DNA from: an uncultured virus (IMG/VR IMGVR_UViG_3300034061_005656)
Lineage: Duplodnaviria > Heunggongvirae > Uroviricota > Caudoviricetes
Strand: one strand, 5' to 3'
IMG/VR virus record: IMGVR_UViG_3300034061_005656
Length of the DNA: 64,000 nucleotides
Every line of letters begins with the position of its first letter. Position 1 is the stretch's first letter. Positions 8,455 through 27,892 of the stretch are shown in pieces. The position numbers and the translations under genes were made by a program. A model generated the notes under the pieces. It was not told the DNA's origin. It ran no database searches and worked only from the letters and a program-made list of their open reading frames with translations.

Positions 8455-8460
8455 ACGGAC

Positions 8461-9009
8461 ATGAAGAAAAAGAAAATTACGAGAAAAACGTTTACAAAGC
8501 AGCATACTCAGCAACTTCGTTCTGAAATTCTTGCTTTACTAGAGCGGTCAAATCTTTACCTACAGGCAGAGCGCCGTGTACCGTTTGCTACCGCAATTGA
8601 AGTAGCAAACCGCGACTTGCGTAAAACACGTGATAGCGAGCCAAGCGCACGTATTTTTTCTGCAATTAAAGCAGTATCTTCGTACATGTCATTAGCGTCT
8701 CGCAATAAAGAGTCAACGATGGCGCTGAGCAACGCAGATCTTTTGCCTGTCGGTCACCCCAACTCTGCTCGCCCGCACGCGATGACAGCATCTGCACTAC
8801 GTCACGCTCAAGCGCAGTGGACAGCCGCCGATCCTTTAGTTGACCCATCTGCGCGTGAACTTGTCATTCGCGCCCACACGGCAACGCCTGGTTCAACTGA
8901 GCGCGCTCATGCGTTTGCTCGTTTGTCCGCCCTTGGCCCTAGTGCCGCGCCTTTAACAGCATCTGTTGACCCGATTCAATACGAAGACGATAACTACCCA
9001 AAAGAGTAG
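8461..9009 (+). CDS. 182-aa head-associated protein; short product of a predicted -1 frameshift gene
   Basis: 'NADLLPVGHP' is paralogous to the 347-aa protein motif; the ORF ends at the slippery site TAC CCA AAA GAG TAG. Confidence 0.75.
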   Translation: MKKKKITRKTFTKQHTQQLRSEILALLERSNLYLQAERRVPFATAIEVANRDLRKTRDSEPSARIFSAIKAVSSYMSLASRNKESTMALSNADLLPVGHPNSARPHAMTASALRHAQAQWTAADPLVDPSARELVIRAHTATPGSTERAHAFARLSALGPSAAPLTASVDPIQYEDDNYPKE

Positions 9010-9026
9010 CGGCTCGCAAGGGCCGC
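8997..9026 (+). promoter_or_regulatory. Predicted -1 programmed ribosomal frameshift signal
   Basis: In-frame X XXY YYZ heptamer C CCA AAA (8997-9003), 5-nt spacer, hairpin GCGGCTC-GCAA-GGGCCGC (9009-9026); the -1 frame is open into the 1591-aa ORF. Confidence 0.8.
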
Positions 9027-9074
9027 GTCCTTCGTCCACACATAGCTTCAGGCAATAGCCGCGCAGAAAAATCG

Positions 9075-12000: not shown

Positions 12001-13850
12001 CAGATTTTTATGGGAATCTAAGCGTAATTTTTGACTTTGCAAGAACACGAGACGAAATTCTTGATTCAAGAGGGACAGAGCTTGTTGCGCAAATAGGTGA
12101 ACCTCGTGGAGCAAACGGACAAATGGGTGCTCTTGAATATCTGCACCCAGAAAATGTAGAACTCTTTAATTCATCTATGACTTCAGCATGGCTCGACAGG
12201 TACGACGAAATATTTGGAGATATACCACGCGAAGTGTTAATACCAAAAGACGAGCCAGAGACAACCCCGTACGAGGCGTACCTAAGAGCAAAAATTACTC
12301 AATTTGATAAAAGTGGAAAAGGAACACTCAAAGAAAACGCTGGAACATTTGGCGAAACAAGAGATGGAAAAGAATTTGGCCTAGATGTAATCAAAGAAGA
12401 GCTTGACCGTGCCATTAGTGCCAGAAAGAATCGGACAAAGGGTGAAGAGAAATTTTCTTCAGATGGTTCTTTGTCACCAGAACCTGAGCCAGCTCAGAGT
12501 GCCGATAGACTCCCAAACAATTCAGTGAGTCTTGAAAAAGAAGCTTCCATGAGTTTTGTACCTAGTGATTACGAGTTAGAAAAAGCTAAAGCAGAACTAG
12601 AAAACCCGGTCAATGCCGCTATTGGGCAAGTGTGGAATATTGGCGGTAAAAAAATACACTTTGGTATGGAAAAAGATCGCAACGTAGTAAAGTACGGCGA
12701 AGACATGGATGACGTAGAAATAGTGCCTATTAACCCGTATAAAATCGCAGGCGTAGAAATGGGCAGTAAAGAAGGAAAAGAGCTCGCGCTTAAGTGGGCG
12801 TACGCTAGATCAGCATTAAGCAGCAATGACGGCACAGGCTATAAATCTACAAGTGAAGTTGACGCGCTTTTGTACGCTGGTGCTCGCGGAGACGAAGCGT
12901 CTTTGGCGCGACTCGAAGAACTGGCTGAAATTGGTAAAGAAAAAGTAGAAAAAATACGAAGTGAAAGACAGGCTGCACTCAAGGACATTGAACCGAAAAG
13001 TGAAACCAATCTTAAGGAGCAAATAGCCAAGGGTTTAGTATCAGAAAAAGATCAAAAGGCAGCAGAACGTATTTTAGGTGGCTCTATTGATGATTTGTAT
13101 GTGGTTCATCAAACTGAGTACGCGTTCCCTATTGACGATGAAGGCAACATTGCACTTAAGCCAGCGTCTGCGTACCCAACAACTCTTGAAGACGGTACAG
13201 AAATATTTGTACCTCGTCACACAATTCATACAGCTCTCAATCACGTTGTTGACCCTATTAAAGAGCGAGGCTGGCCTCCTAACAGTCACATAGCTATTAT
13301 TCCACTTCGCGCCTTATTAGAAGCAAATCCAGGCTCGATCGATAACATTCTTGCAGAAGATACATTTTTTACACCTGAAGCTGGTGGAGTACTAAAATTC
13401 CCTGCCGGGTCGTACAAAACAATAAGTAATGCTACAGATATTGTCTCTGCAAGAGAGCAAGTTTCGGAAGCGATCCGCGAACTTGCAAGACTTGGCTCCT
13501 ACGGCGCACAGGGAGATGAAATAAAGCCAATTATTTTTGAAGAAGGAATTATGGAAATTAGCAATACCGACGCACGCAGGGCGGCATTTAACGCTTTATT
13601 ACAAAGAATTTCAGTCGATTTAGGAATAACAAATCAAATTCACATGGGGACAAATTCGTCTCTTCTTGACAGAGCTGGAGACCAAGATGCGCAGGTGTCT
13701 CAAAATATTGAAAGGTTTTTTACACCAGATTTTCTTTCCAATTTGAGCATAAATCAGATCATGAGACTAACTGTCGGTCGCGACCGCTCGCTATACAGTG
13801 CAGAAACACAAGAGACCAGAGCCGCTCAACAGCAGCAATCTGTTACATAG
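9075..13850 (+). CDS. Giant putative virion-packaged effector 1 (N-terminal RDxxGRF module plus DUF3626-like domains); frame open from 8994
   Basis: N-terminal ~190 aa align by eye with the 4643-aa protein; 'GRFKTQFET..SGG..RPVYGYL..YGE...LK..RATYT..YAEAQVHGGVSL' and a degenerate second copy. Confidence 0.75.
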   Translation: MRARMQRRDRLGRFAEMGGGFSFNFKLSSGGRVSAAGRVVGQSGEDLIEVEMRGVAGVPDGIYSAPSQKGTAAKAILNLEGTNVKTGNIKKSIAKEDEIDISTVQVAAQPSGWTPRNTADGEPKEWSSEDGLVVRQFADSYVAYDTDSAGNPANEIVRGESWADIQKATADYEKRDTPAPAASQDTNARSSDRATSTQLQPTDSLKEAKATGRPLSILRPGTMPKRTQAAYDSIVQSTDGGYKKARELLQKHKELFDRVKEKEASKGTYTSEENAILNEFNDSLIVTESQWNELSEAIKEDYTAAKDGEESAFTEQEVADIVEAITRPLDYRHKLVVNNARAIKDGGQDIYSDELRLQNSAEVLEKADIAIAFPLEVLEKLITDGRFKTQFETNTSGGTLYTQGRMQGDIAQFGYHPRNAPETRPVYGYLTKGGVIDDENFDAVQMYGELQFVLKKDAHSRATYTTQNSLGSGLVPSPMGVPSKDASGAVGNPMAIYAEAQVHGGVSLSDVDYVVVNVGERQPWATHKVSEEQFESISKMLESVGIRVVPVRDGEVVNTWDGGKIVSGPKTQSAEKEKTAKSSKEILDEASALGIKWQGKTVGTSKEEIDRQINSSVKTLRKSKELGLTDIPELSDNIKKIFNDYADGKISLKGMREAILFTDPKDEGLRQWAFGNRQLPIGWRVAAAKEIALSQNDTELVKKIDDFIKFMGDIDNASDEKLEELIRKASVDFGKNMGSPIIQTPDVKRIIRGAGGVTVHDSDERKLDNLSGTTSMGDSITITARRKVETMYGLPFTGENTPEDKAITAMRPISGHSLPKDSYLAREKRMKKIYGEDFVTMYDFPIGSDVADLSQTAKYGRSHIVLSDAVNERTKVVNGDAVTRFGSSGAAVADLESIDEAGIAYADPIGMLFSSMTGDSGASIAGPLDPSFKYNDKYNETATLGTFDPSEVRAVYIADIGQTRREIGDVPQGMNPDFYGNLSVIFDFARTRDEILDSRGTELVAQIGEPRGANGQMGALEYLHPENVELFNSSMTSAWLDRYDEIFGDIPREVLIPKDEPETTPYEAYLRAKITQFDKSGKGTLKENAGTFGETRDGKEFGLDVIKEELDRAISARKNRTKGEEKFSSDGSLSPEPEPAQSADRLPNNSVSLEKEASMSFVPSDYELEKAKAELENPVNAAIGQVWNIGGKKIHFGMEKDRNVVKYGEDMDDVEIVPINPYKIAGVEMGSKEGKELALKWAYARSALSSNDGTGYKSTSEVDALLYAGARGDEASLARLEELAEIGKEKVEKIRSERQAALKDIEPKSETNLKEQIAKGLVSEKDQKAAERILGGSIDDLYVVHQTEYAFPIDDEGNIALKPASAYPTTLEDGTEIFVPRHTIHTALNHVVDPIKERGWPPNSHIAIIPLRALLEANPGSIDNILAEDTFFTPEAGGVLKFPAGSYKTISNATDIVSAREQVSEAIRELARLGSYGAQGDEIKPIIFEEGIMEISNTDARRAAFNALLQRISVDLGITNQIHMGTNSSLLDRAGDQDAQVSQNIERFFTPDFLSNLSINQIMRLTVGRDRSLYSAETQETRAAQQQQSVT

Positions 13851-13960: not shown

Positions 13961-16900
13961 GTGAACGAAGAAAACAACGATTTCGACCCAATTATTGCTG
14001 CGTTAGGCTTTGGCCTCGGTGGTAACTCGAAGGCCGCGCGATCAATGCGCGCGAAACTTCAGCGTCGTGACCGCAGAGGTCGATTTGCCTTTCAGGGCGG
14101 CGGATTCATGTTCAATATCCGCTTTCCGGATGGAGTTCGCAAGCTGTCTGGTCGTGTTGTAGGCGCATCTGGAACTGAAGATGTTGAAATTGAAGTAAAA
14201 GGTAATGACCGTATTCCAGACGGTATCTACGCACTGCCATCAAATAAAGGCGATTCTGTAGCCGCTATTCTTCCCGAGGACGCTCTAAAGGATCTTCCAG
14301 ATGCTGACGTTCGCGCGTCCGAGCGTCTTGCCATTAACGCGGCAGATCTTAAGCGAATGGAGCAGCCTACAGGCTGGACAAAGCAGGTAACTCCTGAGGG
14401 CGAGCCAGAAATCTGGACTTCAGAAGACGGATACTTTGCTAAAAAAGACGGCGATACTTTTACACTTCACCGTGCAGATCTTAGTGACAACTCAATTGGC
14501 GAAGAAGTCGCTCGTGGGAACTCCTGGGCAGACGTACAAAAAGCCGCCCTCGATGACCAAGATGACTATGAAAAAGTTCTTGAGGCAGCGAATACTGCCG
14601 AAAAACCTAGCGCGCCGGGAGCCTCCGCTGCAGATTCTCAAAAAAGAACAAAAGAAAGACTCGAAGCCGCGCGTAAAGCTGGCATTGATTACGGCTCGTT
14701 GACAGACGATGAAATCGCCAAAATCGCGCAGGCGGAATCTGATGAACGATACGCCGGTGGAGTTTGGAAAACTGTCCCGGCTGCAATCCCTAAAGGCGGA
14801 TACAGGACTTCAAAAGGCAACTGGAAAGAGTACGATGAGCCAGATGGCCCACCGACTAGGAAAGAAATTACTGGTGAACAAGCAAAACAAATTCGTCAGC
14901 AGTTTACAGACGCAAGGAAAGAAACTCTTTCTCAGCTACGTGATGCAGTAAATGCCGGAGAAATCGAAAATCTTTCAGATGTTCGTGACATTGCCGAAGG
15001 TCTTAACGTAGCTGGCCAAGCTAATGCCGCTCGTGTAGCAAAGCAAAAGCTTCGGTTTAGCTATAATGGAAAAGATCGCGAAATTACGCCTACAGAAACG
15101 TATTTTAATCCTAAGACCAAAAAAGATAATATTGTTGGTCTTGATGAAAATGGTGAAAAACGTACTTTTACATCGGATAAAATTTTTCCTCCAAATAAAA
15201 AGTCAGAGCAGCCTACTAAAAAAGCCGCCAAAGCGCCAGAGGCACTTGCTCTTGACCCAAACGAAAATCTGGTGCAGCAAATCACAGATGCGGTAGCCGA
15301 TGGCTTAAACGTTCGATTTAATTACAGTGGAAAAGAGCGAAACGTTACCCCGCTTCGCGTGTGGCGTAACCCTAAAACTGAAAAAACAAACCTTACCGCT
15401 AGAGAAGCTGACGGCGCAGAAAAAAACTTTACTCTTGACAAAATCGAGCCACCAACCGGCGCCCCAGACGAGCCACCAACCGGCGGTCCCGGCGAGCCAC
15501 CAACCGGCGGCCCAGACGGAGGCGATTCTCTTGGTTTTGACGACACAGAAGCACTCGTAGATGACATCTATGCTCGCGATTTACTTGGTCTAGAGAATAG
15601 CACTGCAAAGCGCAACTCACTGATGAAGCGTCTTTCCAACGTAATGGCAGACGAAGACCGTGGTATTGGTTTTGACGATTTTGAGCAAGCACTCAATGAA
15701 ATGTACAGCAACGACGAAATCTCTCTGCAAGAACGCAACAATGCTATGACGTATGTTTCGGAGAACATAAGCGATTACGCAGAAGGCGACTTCGGCCCAG
15801 GCGAGCCACCAACCGGCGGCCCAACTGCACCAACCGGTGGCCCAGGAGACTCTCCACAATTCTATAGCACTGACTTTAGTCAAGAGGCTACCTACAACGG
15901 AGAGCCAGTCACTCTTGAGTGGACAAATGATGACCCAGAGTTTGGAATTAGAATAGTAGACTCTGACGGAGAACTAATTGACACTCAGTCGTCTGAAGAC
16001 TATGACTCTCCTCGTGAGTTTGCCGAGTTTATTAGAAGCGAGTTTGGTCAAGAAGTCTACGATACCATTGTTGTAGACGAAGGCACAGGTGCCCCCGCCG
16101 AGCCAGCCGAACCACCAACAGGCGCCCCATCTCGCGATAGTAACATTGATGAGCTGTTTTCTGAATTTGTAAAAGATGATGACCTTTTCAATCTTGAAAG
16201 GTTTTTAGAAGATAGTGTTGATACCTCTGAACAAAACTTTAGAGAGTACTTAAACGACAATGGAATTGACGACGACGTAAGAAACGAAGATGACAAGGCT
16301 AGAGTAGACGATGCAAGAAGAGATTTCTTTGCAGAACTTTATTCTGAAAACTCAGATCGTCTGCGTGAAAAGTTTGCCGAGTACATTAAAAACCGAGACC
16401 CAGAGCTGTACGACGAGCGCATCGGCGAGCCACCAACCGGCGGCCCATCAGCACCAACAGAAGGCCCAGGCGAGCCACCAGAGCAGCACATTATTTCTCT
16501 TAAGGTAGGGACTGCAAAACTTGACAAAGAAGGGTTTGTTCAAACTGGCGTAAGTAAAACGCCTGTTGAAGGCGGGCCTTACGAGTCAACTGGCAATATT
16601 GCTGCTGACATTAGAAAAGAAGCACAGTATGTTATTGACGGCAAAATAAAAGGTGCTAATCCAGATAATGACAATCAATATACTCAGTTTGAAAGATTAA
16701 GCGCTGTCATTGAATTTGAGCGCGAGCGAGGAAATCTGACGGCAGATGACGCGTCATGGCTTCAGTCGTACAATAATGCAGTTTTCCAGTATAGAAACAC
16801 TGCGATGTCTAAAGAAGAATTAAACAATGCAGTTTATTCAATTAATCAGCTAACAGAGCTTCTTGACAAAAAACTGTCTAATTTGCAAAATCCGGCTGCA

Positions 16901-19900
16901 GAAATTGGCCGCAAAGATTCTAAAATATTCTCTGCTCTTACTCAGCTAGGAAGACTGGCTAACGTAGACTTTAGAGATAGAAAAAAAGTTGTAGAAATAA
17001 TTAAAAATATTCTTGATGAAGAAATAAGCAGTGGAAACATAAGCCAACAAGATAAAAATAGTGTCTTACCTGCGCTAGATAATTTAGCAGATCCGATGAC
17101 TTCTGACTCTTCTGTTGAAGGAATTGTTTCAGCGCTTATCGGTGAAGTTAAGTCATGGTACGAAGAGCCAAAAAACTGGACGGGCTTTCCAAATCCGGAC
17201 AAAGTAATACTTGACTCATGGGTAAATAATTTTTCTCCTGACAAGCGTGTAAAAATTAACTACGACGGAGAGCCACTTATCTTTGAGCCAGAGCGTGTAG
17301 TACCTTCTAAGTTTGACGGAGTTACACTAGTCGTCGGAAAAGACATGACAGGCCAGGAGCTGATTCTCCGCTCCGATAGAATAAATACAACAGATAATGC
17401 ATCAGAAGGCGAGCCACCGACAGGCGGCCCAACTCCACCCGCAAATCCTTTTGCAAATCTTCGCGAAACCGACCCCGGTAAGTTTGAGTCGTTTAAAGAT
17501 ATCTACGACGATGCGTCAGACCGCGAAATTGAAGTTCGTATGGCGCTTGACGAACTCTATAACGTACCCTTTGGTAGAGACTACGAAGACCCTGCTACAG
17601 GCGAGCGCATTAGCTCTGGTCAAATTGCAGATTTAATTAAAAAGTACGATACTGAACTTCAAGACATTCGCGCTGGCAGAGTAGCGCCAGAATCAGAGCC
17701 AACAGACGGTTTAACTAATATTGATCCAGCAAAAGAAATGTTTGACGACATGTTTGAAGCGCCGGACGGTGCGTACAAGCCAAACATTTTCGATGTGTAT
17801 GAGCCAAAAGGTCGTCAAGAAGACAATAGCCTTGAGTACACAGACGATCCGTCAGTTCTTTCTAACAGATTCAGCCCGTCTGAACTTATTTTCGCGCTTA
17901 AAGAAGCTGTAGTCCCAGTCAATGGAGAAGAAGCCAGCGGATTTGGATCTCTTAATTTTGGTGACGGCAATGAGCTTGTCCCAGCTGAAGCGCTTTATGA
18001 AGCACTAGACTTAACAGGTGCCAGTGGCCGTAAAACTCTTTCTGCAATTTATGACGAAGAACTTGGCCCAGACGCCGACTCGCCTAATATGCAAAGATAC
18101 GAAATCGACATGGCTGATATGCGCATGCTCGACGATGCAGATCTTCAACCTCTCGATAAGACAATTTTGTCTGACGAAGAAGCCATTGAGTTAAACAGAA
18201 GACTAAGTCTTCCAAGTAATGCTCAAATTCTTCTTGACGAAATGAATGATTACGTTGAAACAAATCCTAAAATTCAAGAGCTTGCAGATTTTTTAAGTCA
18301 GTTTGAAGAATTTGATGACTATGACCCAGATGCTCTTACAAAAGCTCTAGAAAAGTATTTACCATTTGCGTTCAGCAGCGATAGAGAAGAGCAAGACACA
18401 TTTAAAGCTCTTTGGGGAATGCTCATGTCGCTTGACGGTAGCTCAAGCGAAAAATACGATCAAGACTCTCTCTTTAGAGGACCTTTAATGAGAGCGTTTG
18501 AAGACAGATTTGGTAGTTCGTGGGAGCTTGAGTACGATTCATTCCTCGACGAAATCGGTGAGTTTAACGAGTTTGTACAAGGTAAAAATAGAATTGTTAA
18601 CGGAGACGACGATCTCGACTCGGGCTCTGTCGGAGCTAATTTTTTACGTTTAATGAAAGCGTCTTCTAAAATAAATGAAGTACGGCTTCAGCGTTCATTT
18701 GGAGTTTCAATAACCAACCCGGCGTTGGTTAGCAGATACACTACCCCTGGAAGCATTTTTTCGCTAGATCCTCGCCCGTTTTCAACAGCAAATTTTGCGG
18801 ACGAAGATTTGTTTCAGGCGTTTTCTCCAACAAAATCTACAGAACATCGCGTAGTTTTAGTCGCCGCTCCTGGAGAAGTACAAAGTACTTCAGCAGTCGG
18901 TATTTCATGGTTTACAGGCGAAAAAGAGCACATCGGTTTCGGTGAGTTTGAAGTAGTATCAGTCGATCGTAAGCCCGCTTCTCGGTTGCGTGCTGGTGCG
19001 CCCGATGACCTTATTGTCACAATTAAAAAAGCAGACACAAGCGTTGAAGATCTTGCAGCAGAAGACGCCGCTGGCGCGCCTCAAGCAGCGCAAGATGTGC
19101 CAGCACGTGAAATCAAAGATGTTTCAAACTGGACGCGCACAGGCGACCAAACCGGCGGCTCAAACTCTGGCGCATTCTACGAAGACGAAAATGGCCAAGG
19201 CTATTACGTTAAAGTAGCTAAGTCACAGTCTCATGCTGAAAACGAAACACTTGCATCAGCGTTTTATGACGCGCTAGGCGTATCGTCTGCTGAAGTAAGC
19301 GTAGGCGATAGAAATGGCAGTCCGCGAGTTGTTTCAAAGTTAATTCCTAATTCAGTTGGGGATCTCGAATCTCGAGTGGATTCAGGCGATGAAGAGTATC
19401 TTGACAAGCTTCGCAAGGATTTTATTGTCGATGCTTGGCTGGCAAACTATGACGTAACAGGCACCGGATTTGACAACGTCATGTCTGATGGAGACGGGAA
19501 CCCAATTCGTATTGACCCAGGCGGCGCGCTTATGTGGCGCGCACAAGGTTTACCGAAATCTACACTTGGTATGTTTACGGAAGAAAGCGATTACGTACCA
19601 GAAATTGACTCGCTTCGAGACAGCGACATAAACTACTACGCGTGGTCCGTGTTTGGTTCGCTTACTGATGATGATATACGCGCCCAGGCAGAGCGCCTGC
19701 GAGACAGCATGTCTCCAGAGCGAATTAACGCAATTGTTGACAGCATTGTTACTGACCCAGCAGAAGCAGCGTTTATTAAAGAGCGCTTGCGAAATCGTCG
19801 TCAGGGCATTCTTGATCGCTTTGGTCTTGAAGAGCGTCAAGCACTTACAGAACCAGTGTCAATCGAAGACAGCATGGGATATGCTGCACAAGATCTTGAG

Positions 19901-22900
19901 CCTGGCGACGTTACAGTTGGCGACTCGTTTACTGTTGAAAGAGTATTCCGCGACGAAGACACGCCGAAAGGCAAGGTCAGCATTGAAGGCTACTTCCCAG
20001 GTCACCAGACTCAAAGAAAAGAGTGGAACGAAGGCACAATAATTGACGCAATGCGCGGCGGATCTACTCCGCCTAAAGGCGACCGTGAGCCATTGCATCG
20101 ACCTAAGAGGCCAGGATACACTCCAACTGCTCCGTCATTTAGCGGTGGAATTGCAGATGAGCTTGAGGCCGCACAGTCGTGGGGAGAAATTCGTGACATT
20201 CTTGCAGATAAAGACGTTGTCTTTTTTGACTATGAAACAACAGGTCTTGGTGCTGGATCACAGAATCGCCCAGTCCAACTTGGTGCGGTTAAAGTGCGCA
20301 ATGGGGAAGTCATTGAACGTTTCAATGTTTTTATTGATCCCAACGAAGAGCTGAGTGAATGGTCACGCCTGAATCTTAGAGACGCAGACGGTAATCCTCT
20401 CACCGATGAATACCTTTCACAGCAGGTCGGCATGGGCGAAGCTCATTCACTGTTTGTTGATTGGATGGGAGAAAACCCAATTATTGGCGCGCACAACTTG
20501 CCGTTTGACCGAGAAATTCTTGAGCGAATTACAGGTGAAGAAAATATTGATTTTTCACCAGATGGCTACATAGATACTTTGCGTCTTACTCGTGACTTGG
20601 TCAAGAAAAAGACAAAGAAAAACCCAGACGGTCCAGAAGGTCATAAACTTCCACAGTTGCTAAATCACTACGGTCTTGAAATTGAAGGCTGGCACGCAGC
20701 AGACGTTGACGCAGAAAGTGCTGCTAATTTGTTACGAGCCGTTCTCGATGATGCAGCCGGTCGCCCTGACGTTGATCCAAAAACATTTGATTTTAAGACG
20801 CAGCAGCGTGACTACAACGACGCGATGAGTCGTCACAATGAGAATGTAGAAAAGTACAAAGACGAACTTGCCGAGTACGAAGCAAAGAAAGCTGTTGCTG
20901 CCGCATGGAATTGCGGCGGTGGCGGTGGCGGTTTAACTGCCGCGGCTACAGAAGATGGCAATAGTGATTGTAACGTTCCGTCAATCGATGACATGATTGA
21001 CAACGCAAGTGTTAAGCCTGGTGAATTGTCTGACCCAGAGTCAATTACATCTGGCGATACCGCCAAGGGAGACAGTCCATACGATGAAGATGTCACTGAC
21101 ATTATAGAAATCGAGGATTTGTACCCAATAGACGGAGAAGCATACGCTCCGACTGCGCAGCAACAAGCAGTTATCAATTCAGTTTTGTCCAATGAAGGAT
21201 CAGATACTGTAGTTCGTGCAGCTGCTGGAGCTGGAAAAACAAGCACGCTTGTTGCTCTTGCAAAGCGCTTCCAAAAATACAAGCCAGATAAAAAAATTAT
21301 TTACATCGCGTTTAACCGCTCTGTTGCAGACGAAGCGCGTGCAAAAATGCCGTCAAACGTTGAAGTACGAACTGCAGACTCTATTTCATACAACTGGGTA
21401 AAGATAAACTTCCCAGAGTTAATAAAGAAAAAAGGCAATCCAGATCGTCTTGCTGCACCAACAGATATTGCAAAGCATCTTGATGTTCCTTCTGTAGGCC
21501 AAGGCGATGACAGAATTTCAGCAGTCAAAATGGTTAAAGAACTGCGACAAGCGGTATACCAATATACAATTAGCGCAGATAAAGAACTTGGACCTCAGCA
21601 TTTTGAAGAAACTGAACTGACTCCGGATCAAGTGACACCAGAAGTAGTCGAAGCAGCTCAGCGCTGGTGGGCAGACATTTTAGATCCAAAAGGCAAAATG
21701 CCATTTGACTTTAACCACATGAAAAAAATGTGGGCATTGTCAGAGCCTGACTTGTCAGACGAAAGCTCTGGATTAAAAACTGGTGCCGATCTTGTTTTTG
21801 TTGACGAATTTCAAGATACGAACGATGTTCTTGGGACCGTACTTGTCAACCAGCCAAACACTCAAAACGTTTACGTTGGAGATGAAAACCAGGCAATTTA
21901 CCAATTTATGGGCGCCAAAGACTGGCTACAAAAAGTCGTCGTAGAATTTGATCTCCCACTTACTCAGTCGTTCCGCTTCGGCCCAGTAATTGCTCGACAA
22001 GGCAACCGATTCCTACGATTTAAAGAACGCTATCTTGGGTCAAAGAAAACGTTTAGTGTTGAAGGCGCCGGTCCAACAGAAGGCGAGCTCATACGGCCGA
22101 ACACAATGGAAGACGCTGACGCTGTTTTAGTTCGTTCAAACGCCGGAGCGTTTAGAGAAGTTCGTGAAGAACTAATGAACGGTAGAACTGTCGGTGTTAC
22201 AAAAGGCTTCAAGAAAGATCTTGATGATTTTATCGCTGCAGTCGACTGGTTACAAGGCGATCCGGCAACACGCGGCAAGCGCCCAGCAAGAATGCCTGAA
22301 GATCTTCGTCAATTTAATTCTTGGCAAAAAGTAGTCGATGAATCTAAAGATGAAGAAAATGAGTTTAGTCGTAAGCTAGAAATTCTTATTAATGACGTCG
22401 AAGAGCTAGGAATCGAAGAGCTCAAGAATTTGGCAAAGCAGGTTAAGGTAGTCACTGGCGCAGGCGACAAAAAAGACGTCGAATCTGTGCCTTCTCTTCC
22501 AGAAGACTTGTCAGTCGGAATTGAAGAAGCCGATGGAATTGGCAAAGGAATTGGCTTTAAGATTGTAAAAGATGGCATTATCATTACAGGCAAAACATTT
22601 GATGTAAAAGATAAAATCAAATCTTCAAACTCCGGAGTCAAGTGGGATAAGGCGCGTGGTGGATGGTTTATTCCGTCTAGCGCAGACGATGCTAGCCGCA
22701 GACAGCGACTTCAAAACGTTCAAAATGCTGTGTTTTCAGAGTCTGAAAAGCAAGGCGGTAAAGTAGACGTTGTTATTTCAACAGTTCACCAGGCCAAAGG
22801 TCTTGAATGGCCTAAGGTGCGAATGGGCAAAGACTTCTTTGGTCCGCGTAAGCGCAAAGGAATGGAAGACGCTCAGCCTGGAGATCCAAATGCTTGGATT

Positions 22901-25900
22901 ATGCCAAACGAGTCGGAAATTCATCTTGCGTACGTAGCAGTTACCCGAGCAATGGAGCAAGTTGACACTGGCTCACTTAGCTGGCTTGACGACTGGGTTG
23001 CAGACGAAGATCCAGAAGTCAACCCGGACATAAACGCTCCTGAAGCTCCTGAAGCTCCTGAAGCTCCTGAAGTTGTTGAGATTCCTGAAGTTGCTGATTT
23101 GCAAGAAACTGATGTACCAGAAGCGCCAGACACAGTAGCTGAGCCTGTGCAACCTACTGGCATTAAGTATGCAGCGCCAGGCATGGCTCCTTCTAAAGAT
23201 CAAATTCAAAAAGATCTTGATGACACTTTTGATGAAGTCTTTAACTTTATTGAGCAGCTGATAGACCCAGAAACAACGCTTCTTGCAAAGGCCACTACAA
23301 AATCTGGAATTAGAAAAACTAAAGATAAGCTTCAAGACCTTAGAGATAACCTTAATTCTGGAAAAATCACAAATAACGAAGCTGCACAAGAGTTGGCAAG
23401 TATTGTTGACAACCTCCCCGGCGGTGTTGGAAACGAAACTGTAGAAATTGGCGTTCTTGAAGATCTTTTGTCTGATGTTTCACGAATTTTTGACGGTACT
23501 TTTTATCAGCGCCCAACTGGCCCAGATCTTCCGCCTATTGAAAGTACTCGCGGGTACTCAAAGAACGGTGTATTCTTAGTGCCTGGAATGCGCGTACGTG
23601 ATAAGTGGGGATACGCCGGAACTATTGATCGCTACAAAAAAGATGACTGGGTTAACGTTTATGTTGTTCGAGACATTGGAATTCCAGCAAAGCCAGAAAA
23701 TTACCAACAGTCAAAAAACACTGAGCAATTGACTACGATTCCAGAAGGCGGCGATAATCGTTCATGGGCATACGTTGCTGGAATGCCGCTCAATAAGCTT
23801 CCAGACAACTGGCGTGAACTTGCGACTCCTGGAGAAATTGCAGACATTGAAGCTGCAATGGCAAAAGCCAGCGGCAAAGGCGCAAAGCCTTCAGTAAAGG
23901 ACATCCCACCTGGAGACGATGACGGCGGCGACGGCGGTGGTGGCGGCGGCGGAGTTAGCCCGGCGCCTAGCGACGATGACGGCGGCAACTCCCCAAAAGC
24001 TGAAGCCCCGGAGGGGGCACCCGAGGTCCCTGAAGAGCCACAGCAAGATTTTGTCACAGTTCCGGCTGAGTTAGTTGGCGCTGACACTGTAGAAATTGTA
24101 GATCTTGCTGATAAGTTTTCTGATGTAGAGCCATTAACTGCGCCAGAGCATAAAGCACTTGTAAAAGAACTAACTAAGTCAGCAAAAGAAGACGGCGTAA
24201 TGTCCAGAGTTAAAAACGGTTACACTGCTCTTAAAAGGTACAGATTTGTAGGATCTTCTGCTTTAAACGCACTACTAAGAAAAGAGCCTCGGGACTACGT
24301 AGCAAGTATCCAAGCGTCTCACAAAAAGACGCTCGAAGAAAGAAAGCAATCTGGCTACGTTATTCCTGATGATTACGTAGAAATGCTGAATTCAAAACAA
24401 TCAACAAGTTTAGAAGAAGCAACTGCTACTCAGCAAGTACTAGACGATCTTTTTGACGAAGCGCCAAGCCTTGGTAGGTCAATGATTTTGTTTAGAGGAG
24501 TAACAAGTAGCTTTGGGTCAGAACTAGAAAAGTATGAAGTAGGAGAACAGTTTACAGATTTTGGGTACGGGTCAACTTCAACTTCTAAGAAAAAAGCAAA
24601 AGATTTTATAGCACCATACGCATCTCAAGAAGACCAAAAAGACGGGGTGATTATAGAAATTCTTATTGACGAAAACACTAGAGCCATTTCGCCTATGGCG
24701 CTCATTAACTCAGAGTTAGACAACGGGAACGACGTCGAGCAAGAGATTCTTATTGATCGTGGCACTACTTATCAAGTGGTAAGCAAGACGCCAGCAACTC
24801 CAACGCAGCCAAGAACAATACGAGTTGCTGTCGTCAGTCAAGACAGAAGTTTATCGCCAGTTACCGAGGCTCCTGAAGAAGAATCGCCTATTGCTGTAGT
24901 CGAAGAGTCAAGTGTTGATGCCGCGGGGATCAAGCCTGAGTGGCAAACCATGCCTGCAAACGCTTCTGCTGAAGACATAGCAAACAGTCTGAGCGACTAC
25001 TACGCAAAAAATAAGTTTTCGGTAAAAAAAGATGATCTTACAGACGAAGAAGTAGAAGCTGCTCAGCAACTTCTTGAGTATACTCAAGATGACTACATGC
25101 TTGTCAACAGAGAATTGCGTGCCTCTTCAAAATCTAACTTAGAAGATGTAGATTCAGACGCGCTGGAAATAGTTAATGCAATTGACAGTTTAATGGACAC
25201 TGCGCCTACCCTTCCGCAGGATCTTGTACTTTACAGAGGTGTTCATAGCTCGTATTCAAATAACACCATAAGGCCTCTTAATGTTGGAGATTTATTTACA
25301 GATAAAGGATATGTTTCAACATCTTTTAATTCAGAAGTAGCTGAAGATTTTTCTAGCTACGGGTCTGATCTGCCTGACGAGTCTATGGGAAGTGAAATTG
25401 TTCTTGAAATTGTCGCACCGGAAGGCACAAGAGGCATTTTTGTCCCTGGATACTTTGAAGACGATCCAAAAAACGAGCAAGAAATAATTCTTGATAGAGG
25501 CACAACCTTTAGAGTTATTTCTAAGGTAGAAGACAGCAGAGGCATTCTGCAAAAAATTAGAGTAGCCGTAGTTGACCAAGAAAGAGCTGGCTACAGAGAG
25601 CCTGATAGCAATGAAAGATTTGATTTTTCTGAAGTTACGCCAGCAGGTCGGCCAACTCCAATTATAGAAAATCCAAAAACGCTAAGTGAATCATCATTTG
25701 AAAATATAGATTCTCTTATGGCATCAGTAGATAGTGTCGTAAATAGAACAACAACTGCTAAAAATACAGTAGCGGCAGTCGACGGACCAGACATTGAAGA
25801 TATGGAAGTAAAAGTATCAGCATTAGTTGATTCTGTAACTCAAGAAAGATTTTTACGACTTAGATTTAAGCTTACCTCATGGGCTGGAGTTGCGCAAAGG

Positions 25901-27892
25901 AAAAAAGCAAGTAAAAAAGACTCACCGTGGGGAATAGAAAACGAAATTAAAATTCCTACAACAACTTTATTGCCAAATGGAGACATTAGGGTAGACAAAG
26001 AAAAATCTTCGCTGTTGACTTACGATGAATCGTACGCAAAAACGTACAGTAGAGACTTGCCGATAGACGCTGGCGTTGCTAAAATACAGTTATTACAAGG
26101 CAGGCCTAGAGAAACTCTTGGCGTAGAAAAAAATGACTACGCTACTCCTACTGCACTTCATCACTTAGTGACAATTGACTTGCCAATTGATGCAACTGAA
26201 AGTGACATTAAGCGCGCAATTGAAGCCGCAGGAGTTCGAGAGGCGCGTGCGGCCGCACCGGAAGATTTACGTATTTTAGCTGAAAATAAGCTACTTAGCA
26301 TATTTTTGAATCAAACAGATCCTTCTAAAAACATGACGGATCAGCTAAGAAGAGACAATGCGCTCGAAAAAATTAAAGCAAAATGGGGAGTATCTGCTGA
26401 AGATGTTGAAATTGCCACTGACGATCTTGGATTTTTAACTTTTAAACTTCCAGAGTCTGTTGCAGAAGCATACACAGAAGAAGCAGGACTTTTTGCATTA
26501 CAACATCAACTAGCGCCAGGCCGCATTGCATTTAGCATATACCAAGAAGACCCCAGCATTGGTTATGATTCTCCTGAACTTCGTAAGCTAACTGCTGACT
26601 ATATAGTAAATCTCATAACAGGTACAGGCTTGGTGTCGACGACGAATAGATTTTTGTCAGGAATCAACATTTCCGGTATGTCGTCTCAGGAAGACATCGG
26701 GACTGGCGGCGCCGACTACGTATTTACTTCTCCAGTTCGTTCTCCTGCCACTGCAGATCCATCATACGGGGACGCCATGTCAGTACTCTTTGATCCAAAA
26801 AAGGTTTTTCAACGCGCTGATTTTTACGCAAATCCTAGAGACGAGTACGGGCGACGCTACGAGGCAAGCAGCAGCCTTGAAGCTATTCAAGATGGTGGTT
26901 CAAACGCAGAAGTAATGAGTAAGCACGGTTTAGGACCTAAAGACTTAATGGGCATGATAGTCGGACCAGACTATTACAGCTACATTATGGACTCGCTAAA
27001 AGAAAAAAATATCACAGAAATTAACGGAATTCCAATCGAACAATTTGTCTCTGCGACTTACTACAACCCGCCATCTCCCGGCCTTGTTGATTCAGCGGGA
27101 CTGCCGACACAGTTTGGGCAGGCAACTACTCAGTTAATACAGTCAATAAGCGCTGCTGATGGCGCTTTTTACACTGCAGACTATGATAGCACGGATAACG
27201 CTGGGATATTGGGAGAGTTCAATAGAATAGCCGGTACAAAATTAGCTAAGGCAACACTTCCTTTTGATGAAGAAGATGCGCAAATAGTAGGTTTTTTGAC
27301 AGATAAAGAAGGCGGTCTCATTATTAGAGACGCTAAAACAAACAACTTATATATTCAAAAGTCATACGCCCCTATGAGCAGCAGCCCTCAGTTTTTCGCG
27401 CTGGGCCCGACAGCTGCAGACGACGCGGCGCTTAAGCTAATACAAGGGTACAACGCCGGAGCTACGATTGACACTGCTATATTTGAAAACATGCCAGTCG
27501 AGGCTGTGCCGCTTACGTCACCTACAGGCGATATGACTAATGACAGCGATATCAGATATATGAAAACAAAGCTAGAAAGCTTTTCTGCTGGAGACTCTGA
27601 TAAAGACGAGTATGTTGATAAAATTGCTAATTATATTGTCGCATCAATGCTTTTAGCAGAGCCTCATCATTGGCCGTTTTTAGGAGATTACTTTTCTGCA
27701 GTGAGTGACCTTTTTGAGGCTTTTCCAGAAGTGAAAAAAAGAGTACAAATAGTAACTGCACCGACACTTACATGGTCATATTTTGCTGGAATGCCGCTCG
27801 ATGAGTTGCCAAGTAATTGGAGAGAAATTGCGACTCCTGGAGAAATTGCAGACATTGAAGCTGCAATGGCAAAGGCAGCAGGCACAAAGTAA
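13961..27892 (+). CDS. Giant 4643-aa multi-enzyme protein: RDxxGRF module, 3 WYL-like, ART-like, HipA/PI3K-like kinase, DEDDh exonuclease, SF1 (UvrD-like) helicase, 2 VIP2-like ADP-ribosyltransferases, unknown C-terminal domain
   Basis: Exonuclease FDYETTG/GAHNLPFD/HAADVD; helicase AAAGAGKT/DEFQD/VGDENQAIY/STVHQAKGLEW/YVAVTRA; ART L(F/Y)RGV..STS..EQEI(L/I) twice; kinase YYVK..ENE..DAWLANYD..RIDPG. Confidence 0.88.
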   Translation: MNEENNDFDPIIAALGFGLGGNSKAARSMRAKLQRRDRRGRFAFQGGGFMFNIRFPDGVRKLSGRVVGASGTEDVEIEVKGNDRIPDGIYALPSNKGDSVAAILPEDALKDLPDADVRASERLAINAADLKRMEQPTGWTKQVTPEGEPEIWTSEDGYFAKKDGDTFTLHRADLSDNSIGEEVARGNSWADVQKAALDDQDDYEKVLEAANTAEKPSAPGASAADSQKRTKERLEAARKAGIDYGSLTDDEIAKIAQAESDERYAGGVWKTVPAAIPKGGYRTSKGNWKEYDEPDGPPTRKEITGEQAKQIRQQFTDARKETLSQLRDAVNAGEIENLSDVRDIAEGLNVAGQANAARVAKQKLRFSYNGKDREITPTETYFNPKTKKDNIVGLDENGEKRTFTSDKIFPPNKKSEQPTKKAAKAPEALALDPNENLVQQITDAVADGLNVRFNYSGKERNVTPLRVWRNPKTEKTNLTAREADGAEKNFTLDKIEPPTGAPDEPPTGGPGEPPTGGPDGGDSLGFDDTEALVDDIYARDLLGLENSTAKRNSLMKRLSNVMADEDRGIGFDDFEQALNEMYSNDEISLQERNNAMTYVSENISDYAEGDFGPGEPPTGGPTAPTGGPGDSPQFYSTDFSQEATYNGEPVTLEWTNDDPEFGIRIVDSDGELIDTQSSEDYDSPREFAEFIRSEFGQEVYDTIVVDEGTGAPAEPAEPPTGAPSRDSNIDELFSEFVKDDDLFNLERFLEDSVDTSEQNFREYLNDNGIDDDVRNEDDKARVDDARRDFFAELYSENSDRLREKFAEYIKNRDPELYDERIGEPPTGGPSAPTEGPGEPPEQHIISLKVGTAKLDKEGFVQTGVSKTPVEGGPYESTGNIAADIRKEAQYVIDGKIKGANPDNDNQYTQFERLSAVIEFERERGNLTADDASWLQSYNNAVFQYRNTAMSKEELNNAVYSINQLTELLDKKLSNLQNPAAEIGRKDSKIFSALTQLGRLANVDFRDRKKVVEIIKNILDEEISSGNISQQDKNSVLPALDNLADPMTSDSSVEGIVSALIGEVKSWYEEPKNWTGFPNPDKVILDSWVNNFSPDKRVKINYDGEPLIFEPERVVPSKFDGVTLVVGKDMTGQELILRSDRINTTDNASEGEPPTGGPTPPANPFANLRETDPGKFESFKDIYDDASDREIEVRMALDELYNVPFGRDYEDPATGERISSGQIADLIKKYDTELQDIRAGRVAPESEPTDGLTNIDPAKEMFDDMFEAPDGAYKPNIFDVYEPKGRQEDNSLEYTDDPSVLSNRFSPSELIFALKEAVVPVNGEEASGFGSLNFGDGNELVPAEALYEALDLTGASGRKTLSAIYDEELGPDADSPNMQRYEIDMADMRMLDDADLQPLDKTILSDEEAIELNRRLSLPSNAQILLDEMNDYVETNPKIQELADFLSQFEEFDDYDPDALTKALEKYLPFAFSSDREEQDTFKALWGMLMSLDGSSSEKYDQDSLFRGPLMRAFEDRFGSSWELEYDSFLDEIGEFNEFVQGKNRIVNGDDDLDSGSVGANFLRLMKASSKINEVRLQRSFGVSITNPALVSRYTTPGSIFSLDPRPFSTANFADEDLFQAFSPTKSTEHRVVLVAAPGEVQSTSAVGISWFTGEKEHIGFGEFEVVSVDRKPASRLRAGAPDDLIVTIKKADTSVEDLAAEDAAGAPQAAQDVPAREIKDVSNWTRTGDQTGGSNSGAFYEDENGQGYYVKVAKSQSHAENETLASAFYDALGVSSAEVSVGDRNGSPRVVSKLIPNSVGDLESRVDSGDEEYLDKLRKDFIVDAWLANYDVTGTGFDNVMSDGDGNPIRIDPGGALMWRAQGLPKSTLGMFTEESDYVPEIDSLRDSDINYYAWSVFGSLTDDDIRAQAERLRDSMSPERINAIVDSIVTDPAEAAFIKERLRNRRQGILDRFGLEERQALTEPVSIEDSMGYAAQDLEPGDVTVGDSFTVERVFRDEDTPKGKVSIEGYFPGHQTQRKEWNEGTIIDAMRGGSTPPKGDREPLHRPKRPGYTPTAPSFSGGIADELEAAQSWGEIRDILADKDVVFFDYETTGLGAGSQNRPVQLGAVKVRNGEVIERFNVFIDPNEELSEWSRLNLRDADGNPLTDEYLSQQVGMGEAHSLFVDWMGENPIIGAHNLPFDREILERITGEENIDFSPDGYIDTLRLTRDLVKKKTKKNPDGPEGHKLPQLLNHYGLEIEGWHAADVDAESAANLLRAVLDDAAGRPDVDPKTFDFKTQQRDYNDAMSRHNENVEKYKDELAEYEAKKAVAAAWNCGGGGGGLTAAATEDGNSDCNVPSIDDMIDNASVKPGELSDPESITSGDTAKGDSPYDEDVTDIIEIEDLYPIDGEAYAPTAQQQAVINSVLSNEGSDTVVRAAAGAGKTSTLVALAKRFQKYKPDKKIIYIAFNRSVADEARAKMPSNVEVRTADSISYNWVKINFPELIKKKGNPDRLAAPTDIAKHLDVPSVGQGDDRISAVKMVKELRQAVYQYTISADKELGPQHFEETELTPDQVTPEVVEAAQRWWADILDPKGKMPFDFNHMKKMWALSEPDLSDESSGLKTGADLVFVDEFQDTNDVLGTVLVNQPNTQNVYVGDENQAIYQFMGAKDWLQKVVVEFDLPLTQSFRFGPVIARQGNRFLRFKERYLGSKKTFSVEGAGPTEGELIRPNTMEDADAVLVRSNAGAFREVREELMNGRTVGVTKGFKKDLDDFIAAVDWLQGDPATRGKRPARMPEDLRQFNSWQKVVDESKDEENEFSRKLEILINDVEELGIEELKNLAKQVKVVTGAGDKKDVESVPSLPEDLSVGIEEADGIGKGIGFKIVKDGIIITGKTFDVKDKIKSSNSGVKWDKARGGWFIPSSADDASRRQRLQNVQNAVFSESEKQGGKVDVVISTVHQAKGLEWPKVRMGKDFFGPRKRKGMEDAQPGDPNAWIMPNESEIHLAYVAVTRAMEQVDTGSLSWLDDWVADEDPEVNPDINAPEAPEAPEAPEVVEIPEVADLQETDVPEAPDTVAEPVQPTGIKYAAPGMAPSKDQIQKDLDDTFDEVFNFIEQLIDPETTLLAKATTKSGIRKTKDKLQDLRDNLNSGKITNNEAAQELASIVDNLPGGVGNETVEIGVLEDLLSDVSRIFDGTFYQRPTGPDLPPIESTRGYSKNGVFLVPGMRVRDKWGYAGTIDRYKKDDWVNVYVVRDIGIPAKPENYQQSKNTEQLTTIPEGGDNRSWAYVAGMPLNKLPDNWRELATPGEIADIEAAMAKASGKGAKPSVKDIPPGDDDGGDGGGGGGGVSPAPSDDDGGNSPKAEAPEGAPEVPEEPQQDFVTVPAELVGADTVEIVDLADKFSDVEPLTAPEHKALVKELTKSAKEDGVMSRVKNGYTALKRYRFVGSSALNALLRKEPRDYVASIQASHKKTLEERKQSGYVIPDDYVEMLNSKQSTSLEEATATQQVLDDLFDEAPSLGRSMILFRGVTSSFGSELEKYEVGEQFTDFGYGSTSTSKKKAKDFIAPYASQEDQKDGVIIEILIDENTRAISPMALINSELDNGNDVEQEILIDRGTTYQVVSKTPATPTQPRTIRVAVVSQDRSLSPVTEAPEEESPIAVVEESSVDAAGIKPEWQTMPANASAEDIANSLSDYYAKNKFSVKKDDLTDEEVEAAQQLLEYTQDDYMLVNRELRASSKSNLEDVDSDALEIVNAIDSLMDTAPTLPQDLVLYRGVHSSYSNNTIRPLNVGDLFTDKGYVSTSFNSEVAEDFSSYGSDLPDESMGSEIVLEIVAPEGTRGIFVPGYFEDDPKNEQEIILDRGTTFRVISKVEDSRGILQKIRVAVVDQERAGYREPDSNERFDFSEVTPAGRPTPIIENPKTLSESSFENIDSLMASVDSVVNRTTTAKNTVAAVDGPDIEDMEVKVSALVDSVTQERFLRLRFKLTSWAGVAQRKKASKKDSPWGIENEIKIPTTTLLPNGDIRVDKEKSSLLTYDESYAKTYSRDLPIDAGVAKIQLLQGRPRETLGVEKNDYATPTALHHLVTIDLPIDATESDIKRAIEAAGVREARAAAPEDLRILAENKLLSIFLNQTDPSKNMTDQLRRDNALEKIKAKWGVSAEDVEIATDDLGFLTFKLPESVAEAYTEEAGLFALQHQLAPGRIAFSIYQEDPSIGYDSPELRKLTADYIVNLITGTGLVSTTNRFLSGINISGMSSQEDIGTGGADYVFTSPVRSPATADPSYGDAMSVLFDPKKVFQRADFYANPRDEYGRRYEASSSLEAIQDGGSNAEVMSKHGLGPKDLMGMIVGPDYYSYIMDSLKEKNITEINGIPIEQFVSATYYNPPSPGLVDSAGLPTQFGQATTQLIQSISAADGAFYTADYDSTDNAGILGEFNRIAGTKLAKATLPFDEEDAQIVGFLTDKEGGLIIRDAKTNNLYIQKSYAPMSSSPQFFALGPTAADDAALKLIQGYNAGATIDTAIFENMPVEAVPLTSPTGDMTNDSDIRYMKTKLESFSAGDSDKDEYVDKIANYIVASMLLAEPHHWPFLGDYFSAVSDLFEAFPEVKKRVQIVTAPTLTWSYFAGMPLDELPSNWREIATPGEIADIEAAMAKAAGTK
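15446..17430 (+). repeat. Dispersed GAGCCACCAACCGGC-type (EPPTG) linker repeats within the giant ORF
   Basis: Copies at about 15446, 15470, 15494, 15803, 16109, 16427 and 17411. Confidence 0.85.
23820..23865 (+). repeat. 46-bp direct repeat, copy 1 (within a ~40-codon duplicated segment)
   Basis: TTGCGACTCCTGGAGAAATTGCAGACATTGAAGCTGCAATGGCAAA, identical to 27828-27873. Confidence 0.92.
23992..24018 (+). promoter_or_regulatory. Second predicted -1 frameshift signal (would truncate the giant protein)
   Basis: In-frame C CCA AAA (23992-23998), 6-nt spacer, hairpin GCCCC-GGAG-GGGGC; the -1 frame reads CCC AAA AGC TGA. Confidence 0.6.
27828..27873 (+). repeat. 46-bp direct repeat, copy 2 (C-terminus of the giant ORF)
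   Basis: Identical to 23820-23865. Confidence 0.92.

Follow-up and report, generated by a model that had tools for sequence, protein, structure and literature searches.

We analyzed a stretch of 64,000 nucleotides of DNA from an uncultured tailed virus (Caudoviricetes; IMG/VR record IMGVR_UViG_3300034061_005656; hereafter the window), in which a single giant open reading frame (ORF) lies among the genes of the virion head. The frame starts with GTG, is bounded upstream by an in-frame stop codon at 13934-13936, and is translated without interruption into a polypeptide of 4643 amino acids (aa), here named P0001, as the original prediction from the sequence alone had claimed. The GC content along the gene is 0.41-0.49 and is similar in the flanks. 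The two nearest relatives of the protein, P0152 (4517 aa, 60% identity) and P0153 (4669 aa, 59% identity), share its length, its domain order, and an identical set of Pfam domains. Because the source sequence is a metagenome, a chimeric assembly or a chance open frame might be suspected; the probability of such an artefact is virtually nil, since a stop-free frame of 13.9 kb is impossible by chance and both the relatives and the flank-like GC content speak against it. The intact translation, the match with P0152 and P0153, and the existence of 78 related loci (described below) rule the artefact out. A megablast search with the gene against the phage collection yielded zero matches, and promoter and terminator patterns were no more numerous than in shuffled sequences.

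A giant gene in the head module

The genes of the window follow the order portal, Dps/ferritin-like gene, ORF 7163-8206, leader ORF 8461-9009, a 1591-aa ORF, and the giant gene, after which come ORF 28274-28984, a MuF/protease-like gene, the capsid gene, and the tail genes (Table 1). Beyond 53 kb there is a separate replication module, which includes a polymerase, a helicase, and an exonuclease of its own. The capsid protein shares 81% identity with its counterpart in Actinomycetia phage DSL-LC01 and, at greater distance, has relatives in large Microbacterium, Arthrobacter, and Gordonia phages. The genome in the window is siphovirus-like and related to DSL-LC01, and the host of the phage probably belongs to the actinobacteria.

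Related loci were collected from IMG/VR. A locus search with a single protein query gave no confirmed locus, whereas the query with alignment A1 succeeded; the pattern scan based on the kinase alignment yielded 575 stretches coding for a relative, and 78 loci were retained. Genes and modules were counted in these loci by tblastn with window proteins and domain pieces, and the 10-kb flanks limit the outer counts. Among the flanking genes, the portal was found in 62 loci, the leader ORF in 61, ORF 7163-8206 in 60, the MuF-like gene in 51, ORF 28274-28984 in 47, and the capsid gene in 30. All matches lie in one gene order and on one strand, with the portal upstream and the MuF-like gene downstream of the giant gene.

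Domain composition of P0001

P0001 is a real ORF, and all of the domains named in the original prediction found support. At least 10 domain units are present: three WYL-like units, three ADP-ribosyltransferases (ARTs) of the R-S-E type, a kinase, an exonuclease, a helicase, and a DarT-like ART (Table 1). The catalytic residues expected of the R-S-E ARTs, the kinase, the exonuclease, and the helicase were all found when read from the numbered sequence. The whole-protein Pfam scan returned ADPrib_exo_Tox (E 4.1e-28, two stretches), RNase_T (E 4.8e-15), UvrD-helicase (E 1.6e-14), and UvrD_C; the protein was also scanned as tiles of 300 aa. The PHROGs scan returned DNA helicase, DNA polymerase exonuclease subunit, and ART families including "Alt-like", and the NCBIfam scan returned exonuclease (PolC/DnaQ-type) and helicase rows and nothing further. 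The core of the family is composed of the N-terminal handle, ART-A, the kinase, and the DarT-like ART, while the WYL-like units, the exonuclease, the helicase, and the VIP2-like ARTs are accessory.

Table 1. Coordinates of the features of the window, with the residues of P0001 in brackets
Feature	Position	Strand	Basis or remark
Portal gene	4865..6628	+	phrog_776, 2e-103
Dps/ferritin-like gene, directly after portal	6638-7135		Pfam Ferritin 2.9e-16
ORF between Dps/ferritin-like gene and leader ORF	7163-8206
Upstream paralogous cargo gene	8461..13850	+	leader ORF 8461-9009 and frame open 8994-13850 (N-handle, DUF3626, further modules)
Giant ORF P0001	13961..27892	+	GTG start, 4643 codons, translation without stop
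N-terminal handle domain (aa 1-260)	13961..14740	+	common to upstream gene and family
WYL-like units 1 and 2 (aa 355-412, 442-499)	15023..15457	+	sub-threshold Pfam, paralogy, homologue identity
Variable region, Pro/Gly-rich linkers and short internal repeats (aa ~500-1090)	15458..17230	+	self-comparison; no homologue coverage
WYL-like unit 3 (aa 1088-1145)	17222..17395	+	hhalign to family unit profile
Block A, N part: small alpha/beta domain and helices (aa 1250-1419)	17708..18217	+	AlphaFold2 model; conserved in 45/150 homologues
ART-A, R-S-ExE mono-ART fold (aa ~1420-1698)	18218..19054	+	AlphaFold2 fold, family profile comparison
CtkA/HipA/PI4KII-like kinase domain (aa 1717-1960)	19109..19840	+	AlphaFold2 fold, conserved residues
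DEDDh 3'-5' exonuclease (aa 2083-2301)	20207..20863	+	Pfam RNase_T, phrog_192, NCBIfam PolC/DnaQ-type
UvrD-like SF1 helicase, insert with weak DUF5710 match (aa 2396-3000)	21146..22960	+	Pfam, PHROGs, FBH1 9.3e-20
60-aa motif copy 1, after small conserved beta domain (aa 3246-3305)	23696..23875	+	58% identity to aa 4586-4641, E 2e-19
ART1, VIP2/C3-like (aa 3445-3630)	24293..24850	+	ADPrib_exo_Tox 2.6e-12 on tile; paralogue of ART2
ART2, VIP2/C3-like (aa 3666-3876)	24956..25588	+	Pfam, PHROGs, alignments to Lmo0066, ExoT, Vis
C-domain, N half (aa ~3895-4165)	25643..26455	+
DarT-like ART fold (aa 4166-4369)	26456..27067	+	AlphaFold2 model, structure searches, conserved residues
Unique tail, ends in copy 2 of 60-aa motif (aa 4401-4643)	27161..27892	+	no homologue coverage
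60-aa motif copy 2 (aa 4586-4641)	27716-27883	+	C-terminal end of P0001
ORF between giant and MuF-like genes, 236 aa	28274-28984		no Pfam match
MuF/portal-associated/protease-like head protein, 1364 aa	29003..33097	+	phrog_859, phrog_18402
Major capsid protein	33724..35664	+	phrog_777, 1.4e-87

The handle is shared with the neighboring gene: aa 29-261 of P0001 are 37% identical to aa 1-232 of the upstream ORF 9075-13850 (E 1e-35). It had no match in the family profile databases, and its best score in the Atlas was 0.75, below the useful range.

ART-A had no Pfam match, either in the whole protein or in the tiles, and its assignment comes from fold and profile. The residues aa 1250-1960 were modeled with AlphaFold2 from an alignment with 29 relatives (predicted local distance difference test, pLDDT, 86.6). 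Among the 50 structure matches listed for this model in a search other than Foldseek, the sole four that were not kinases were mono-ARTs; the Foldseek matches for ART-A included Vis (probability 1.00) and the VIP2-like domain of lethal factor. When the ART-A profile (29 members) was compared with the family profile of the VIP2-like ART1 and ART2 domains, the two aligned over 116 columns (probability 88.7, E 2.6e-6), with R1578, S1608, and E1654/E1656 in line with the R, S, and ExE of the latter. The residues of the motif in P0001 are R1578, S1608/T1609, E1654, and E1656. Fold and family profile thus agree with the R-S-ExE ART that had been called here, although the domain is larger than had been drawn.

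The same model contains a fold of the class that had been predicted as HipA/PI3-4-kinase-like. Its listed structure matches include CotH (13.9), PI4KIIalpha (13.1-13.5), MavQ (13.0), and HipT/HipA (11.6-12.7). Alignments A1 and A2 show no variation at the Gly-rich loop (G1733-S-N), K1751, E1762, D1824, N1829, D1831, and D1852. The kinase domain had no Pfam match in P0001, and even in relatives HipA_2 and HipA_C fell slightly under their cut-offs (26.5 vs 27 and 23.6 vs 30.5, respectively). A sequence search of the PDB with aa 1500-2080 gave zero matches at E <= 10. When the C-domain, ART-A, and three homologues were submitted to PADLOC, neither a DarT nor an ART model was matched, and the sole results were a weak PDC-M03A match for the kinase and a weak WYL match (P0135).

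The two VIP2-like ARTs were found as predicted, both above the ADPrib_exo_Tox cut-off of 23.4 bits in the tile scan (ART1, 46.9 bits; ART2, 78 bits). Their catalytic residues are intact: R3512, S3538-T-S3540, E3593, and E3595 in ART1, and R3759, S3786-T-S3788, E3839, and E3841 in ART2. In the HMMER alignment of ART2 to Lmo0066, ExoT, and Vis, the R, S-T-S, and ExE elements are in register. Both domains match phrog_802, "Alt-like RNA polymerase ADP-ribosyltransferase" (2.2e-11).

The C-terminal domain, which had been noted for the string GGADYVFT and labeled unknown, does exist as a domain; its label can be replaced by that of a DarT-like ART fold. The model of aa 3880-4400, built with AlphaFold2 from an alignment with 31 relatives, had a pLDDT of 85.7 and a predicted TM-score (pTM) of 0.85. 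The structure matches of aa 4166-4369 were E. coli DarT1 (10.8), Thermosipho DarTG (10.8), Thermus DarT (9.1), and M. tuberculosis DarT (8.8), with Tpt1 and other ARTs after them in the list. The top Foldseek match was also DarT1 (E 1.9e-3, probability 1.00, TMt 0.56), and Foldseek matches in BFVD were iridovirus 422L and giant-virus proteins. In family alignments of 31 and 6 members, H4182 and Y4253 are nearly invariant, E4317 is invariant, and R4230 is invariant or nearly so. The best Atlas score of the domain was 0.85, below the useful range, and its halves showed no relation by hhalign (probability <= 1.0) to the ART-PolyVal and LPD38 segments of the homologues P0183 and P0184. Judging from the modeled fold, the domain is predicted to be a fourth ART, closest to DarT, so that P0001 would contain four domains of ART fold.

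The accessory enzymes were identified by standard profiles. The DEDDh exonuclease that had been predicted matched RNase_T with 56.9 bits (cut-off 24; aa 2087-2258) and the PHROGs exonuclease subunit family (8.3e-26), and its catalytic set D2090, E2092, D2183, H2245, and D2250 is completely kept. For the superfamily 1 (SF1) helicase, the UvrD profiles (UvrD-helicase, 54.7 bits; UvrD_C, 31.2 bits) and phrog_1967 DNA helicase (E 6.2e-74, aa 2396-3000) agree with the positions of the motifs, which had been reported as intact: motifs I, II, III, V, and VI are present, with Walker A at 2423-2427, motif II at 2615-2619, and R2996. All three predicted WYL-like units also found support. In P0001 itself, the Pfam WYL match in the tiles is sub-threshold (19.2 bits vs a cut-off of 21.8, aa ~438-496). 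However, units 1 and 2 are paralogues of each other in the self-comparison of P0001, and they are 41-59% identical to the WYL units of the homologues P0009 and P0017, which score above the cut-off (34.3 and 27.5 bits). Unit 3 aligned to a profile of 96 family WYL units by hhalign (probability 89.3, E 2.1e-6, 51 columns). KTSC and NUDIX domains, which are present in relatives, were not found in P0001.

A repeated motif of 60 aa may be a capsid-targeting or processing signal, or the trace of a gene fusion. It is internal in three close homologues and absent from the C-termini of the DSL-LC01, Mimi, and Forza counterparts (see below). In a set of 22 proteins, the MuF/protease-like ORF showed a weak look-alike close to its C-terminal end (32978-33052; aa 1326-1350, E 0.06).

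The modules are not evenly distributed over the 78 loci. The kinase is present in all 78, the C-domain in 65, block A in 62, the handle in 44, and WYL in 43, and among the accessory enzymes the exonuclease was found in 45 loci, the helicase in 23, and a VIP2-like ART in 16. A common core with accessory enzymes is what would be expected if P0001 were a structural or ejection protein, whose core builds a body inside the head or, like the T7 core proteins, a conduit across the envelope, and whose enzymes are passengers or decayed. We consider this quite improbable. The catalytic-type residues are invariant over 29-31 members (K, D, N, and D of the kinase; R and ExE of ART-A; E4317), and the near-invariance of H4182 and Y4253 in the C-domain also speaks against a structural protein. 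Transmembrane or channel-like features were not seen, though no search was aimed at such features. The invariance of catalytic-type residues in the core therefore favors an enzyme role.

A family of giant proteins and the upstream cargo gene

In a HMMER scan of 1.84 billion cluster representatives with aa 1500-2080, 4311 proteins matched at E <= 1e-3 and 2907 at E <= 1e-10. Almost all of the 150 homologues listed are 1000-7000 aa long. Blocks of P0001 were counted in these 150 by local BLAST, with the kinase present in all by construction: the C-terminal block (aa ~3900-4350) was found in 88, the N-terminal block (aa 1-200) in 55, block A (aa 1250-1700) in 45, the exonuclease in 27, and the helicase in 16. 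Neither aa 600-1100 nor the final 240 residues of P0001 were covered by any of them. A word-indexed search recovered 47 giants that are 2616-7986 aa long, on contigs that reach ~150 kb, and the DSL-LC01 protein is among them. In the literature searched, neither the family nor a virion DarT-like ART was found described, and the supplements of the cited papers and the FTP architecture lists of Iyer et al. (see below) may contain related architectures.

Cultured phages have counterparts of the gene. In the same slot, DSL-LC01 encodes a 3289-aa "hypothetical protein" with leader, handle, WYL, block A, kinase, and C-domain, and without exonuclease, helicase, and VIP2-like ART. In Arthrobacter phage Mimi, gp77, a 2709-aa "DNA helicase", follows the portal gene, while in Gordonia phage Forza a kinase protein (gp78) and an ART (gp80) are separate genes after the portal. 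A helicase and a nuclease in the head module had been regarded as a notable feature of this DNA; given their occurrence in the related loci and in Mimi gp77, the feature is not specific to this phage. The kinase is also fused to known head and effector domains. P0029 and P0033 consist of Phage_Mu_F, two to three kinase copies, and ADPrib_exo_Tox; P0186 combines the kinase with Phage_Mu_F, P0183 with ART-PolyVal and LPD38, and P0184 with LPD38. In Gram-negative phages (~90 kb) the kinase lies inside proteins annotated as ADP-ribosyltransferases.

The 1591-aa ORF upstream of the giant gene (9075-13850, with a listed TTG start at 9075) contains the N-handle and DUF3626 (aa 376-469, 5.6e-8). Its modules other than the handle are also present within further family giants (P0178, P0165, P0181, P0076, and the one in locus L005), and the ORF encodes a second cargo protein of this system. 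Two handle-bearing genes are present in DSL-LC01, too. One handle with different cargo in adjacent genes is the pattern of polymorphic effector systems. Another arrangement was seen on a single IMG/VR contig, where two giant genes of the family (loci L025 and L043) stand in tandem, the first with WYL, block A, kinase, exonuclease, helicase, ART, and C-domain, and the second with handle, kinase, and C-domain; thus, gene duplication recurs in the clade.

In the window, the frame of the upstream gene is broken, while in 40/40 related loci leader and handle are in one continuous frame. The leader ORF stops two codons past the heptamer CCCAAAA (8997-9003). In the -1 frame, which is open from 8994, the conserved beginning of the handle is encoded before the first ATG, GTG, or TTG occurs. 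Downstream of the heptamer there is a stem of 5 bp of GC with a loop of 8 bases (9009-9026). In independent lake-water contigs from two other studies (X5 and X6), the site 8997-9026 has no indel, and X5 has two substitutions, both in the loop. An assembly error at the break seems unlikely. The break may be a programmed -1 frameshift or a genuinely split gene.

The constant handle with swapped C-terminal cargo, seen in the two adjacent genes and family-wide, could also be read as a polymorphic toxin that is borne by the phage and serves lysogens in bacterial competition, rather than takeover by an infecting phage. A model for such toxins exists for MuF proteins (PMC5576092), and DSL-LC01 was called lysogenic by its authors (PMC10611076). 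We regard a toxin of this kind as highly unlikely. The gene is a constant part of the head module across the 78 loci, and no integrase was seen in the window. Furthermore, the Pfam scan of 28 other ORFs of the 64-kb window recognized no immunity-like or ADP-ribosyl-hydrolase gene. The same scan of these 28 ORFs recognized no Macro, NADAR, or ARH-type gene and no DarG-like partner for the DarT-like domain.

Several neighboring genes were also characterized. A homologue of the Dps/ferritin-like gene is found at the same place in 23/78 loci, and the product of ORF 28274-28984 is 48% identical to a "high potential iron-sulfur protein" of DSL-LC01. The MuF/protease-like protein partly matches Forza gp82 and Mimi gp79. 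In the tail module, ORF 45129-48143 encodes 12 DUF5122 beta-propeller repeats and fn3, with a borderline match to the NarE ART family (28.0 bits vs a cut-off of 27, aa 403-467). Sequences of the stretch 8400-9600 occur in lake-water metagenomes of several studies, and eight runs contain at least half of the words sampled, consistent with a freshwater phage of wide distribution. No RNA run was among the sequencing runs listed as containing the stretch.

A candidate for an effector carried in the capsid

We propose that P0001 is a "polyvalent" effector of a freshwater siphovirus, which is carried in the capsid and ejected with the DNA, and we assign this reading a probability of about 0.65. An anti-defence or host-takeover toolkit, or a toxin, had been proposed in the original prediction. 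The head position in 78 loci and the fusions of relatives to MuF and ART-PolyVal fit an effector carried by the virion, while the action of the protein on the host is still an inference. The process would comprise four steps. P0001 would be made late, together with the head genes, as its position suggests. It would then be loaded into the procapsid through the conserved N-handle that it has in common with the upstream cargo gene, and would probably be cut at the Pro/Gly-rich linkers. Finally, it would exit the capsid with the DNA, by analogy with T4 Alt, the MuF toxins, and the N4 virion RNA polymerase. In the cell, the three R-S-ExE ARTs and the CtkA/HipA-like kinase would modify host proteins, whereas the DarT-like ART, the UvrD-type helicase, the DEDDh exonuclease, and the WYL units would act on or bind nucleic acid. 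The joint outcome may be that the host is shut down or re-programmed, or that its defences are blunted, before phage genes are expressed.

Several points weigh against this proposal. Packaging, ejection, targets, and every activity of P0001 are inferred. A polypeptide of ~500 kDa would need unfolding or processing to pass through a siphovirus tail, and no protease site was identified. The conserved core across family members could have a structural role instead. By Pfam, P0001 lacks the hub domains that define polyvalent proteins (MuF, ART-PolyVal, ArdC-N, MPTase, SNF2, methylase, and DdrB-ParB). The likeness to DarT is one of fold, with no match in Pfam (tiles and 15 homologues), in PADLOC, or in a PDB sequence search with profile A4.

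If P0001 is not packaged, it could be a late cytoplasmic enzyme that is expressed with the head genes and acts in the producing cell, for example on host or phage DNA during packaging, or to control the dying host. A helicase and an exonuclease would suit DNA processing near the packaging genes, and the Gram-negative phages with the kinase domain have it outside an obvious head module (e.g., Dolphis gp117). This alternative seems unlikely, as the gene keeps a strict slot between the portal and the MuF/protease/capsid genes across the 78 loci. Direct MuF fusions of kinase and ART also speak against it, and delivery from inside the head is the known use of such fusions (PMC5576092, PMC9503650).

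If P0001 is indeed packaged and ejected, it would be among the largest and most enzyme-rich proteins delivered by a tailed phage, and the type example of a very common and undescribed family of the lake virome. Three domain families outside Pfam are on offer, namely the N-handle, the CtkA/HipA-like kinase, and the DarT-like ART, and their targets would reveal how phages take over abundant freshwater actinobacteria. The logic of handle plus cargo could potentially be used to load foreign proteins into capsids. A bolder proposal, which we put forward only tentatively and consider doubtful, is that the core (N-handle, ART-A, kinase, and DarT-like ART) acts as an obligatory "first strike" machine that is delivered by the capsid in a large clade of freshwater actinophages, and that its DarT-like domain ADP-ribosylates DNA. 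ADP-ribosylation of DNA by DarT is the chemistry of a bacterial anti-phage defence (DarTG), and a phage-borne DarT-like enzyme would mirror this defence toxin of the host. Should the proposal be true, DarT-like chemistry would be a phage weapon on the host chromosome, or a protective mark on the phage's own incoming DNA, and the module of helicase and exonuclease would expose or process a single-stranded substrate for the DarT-like domain.

The idea of such effectors has already been published as the "polyvalent proteins" of phages and conjugative elements (Iyer, Burroughs, Anand, de Souza, and Aravind 2017, PMC5512222; extended 2022). These polypeptides have 2-15 distinct domains each, and ARTs are their commonest protein-modifying domain (PMC5512222). 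P0001 likewise places many effector and enzymatic domains (at least 10 units) in one huge phage polypeptide encoded among virion genes, and relatives that share its kinase carry ART-PolyVal, LPD38, and MuF. In contrast, its kinase is CtkA/HipA-like, while the published set has a truncated S/T/Y kinase (PMC5512222). In the text of that article, HipA and DnaQ are never named; WYL is mentioned solely as a sensor associated with CRISPR, and UvrD solely for a few plasmids of actinomycetes. What sets P0001 apart from the published class is the lack of a hub domain, the R-S-E ARTs in a polyvalent protein, the DarT-like ART, and the CtkA/HipA-like kinase. The kinase is at most 18% identical to Helicobacter CtkA and HipA-type kinases. 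Unlike the DarT of DarTG defence, the DarT-like domain sits in a protein of the phage structural module and has no sequence-level match.

Other known systems resemble P0001 in part. The MuF polymorphic toxins (Jamet et al. 2017, PMC5576092) carry a head-associated module at the N-terminus, with toxic or enzymatic cargo behind it that varies and includes ARTs, and delivery alongside DNA injection has been proposed; kinases are not mentioned in the text of the article. P0001 has the same plan, but it has no MuF, its handle is a different and uncharacterised one, it is far larger, and it carries many cargo domains. T4 Alt is an R-S-E ART that is packaged in the head and injected (PMC5512222, PMC9503650). 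ART1 and ART2 match the Alt-like family phrog_802 and keep its R, S-T-S, and ExE, whereas Alt is a single-enzyme protein of a myovirus. The giants of the Microbacterium phage cluster EK and of phage Burro are likewise encoded by ~13-kb genes in actinophages and were reported with few informative domains, and the >4400-aa protein of Burro is virion-associated, being seen as a band of ~250 kDa that is probably processed (Jacobs-Sera et al. 2020, PMC7302621). No sequence match between these >4400-aa proteins and P0001 was found by tblastn of the phage collection. Since relatives of P0001 fuse its kinase to MuF, ART-PolyVal, and LPD38, P0001 is best seen as a compositional variant of the polyvalent effectors that are delivered by virions.

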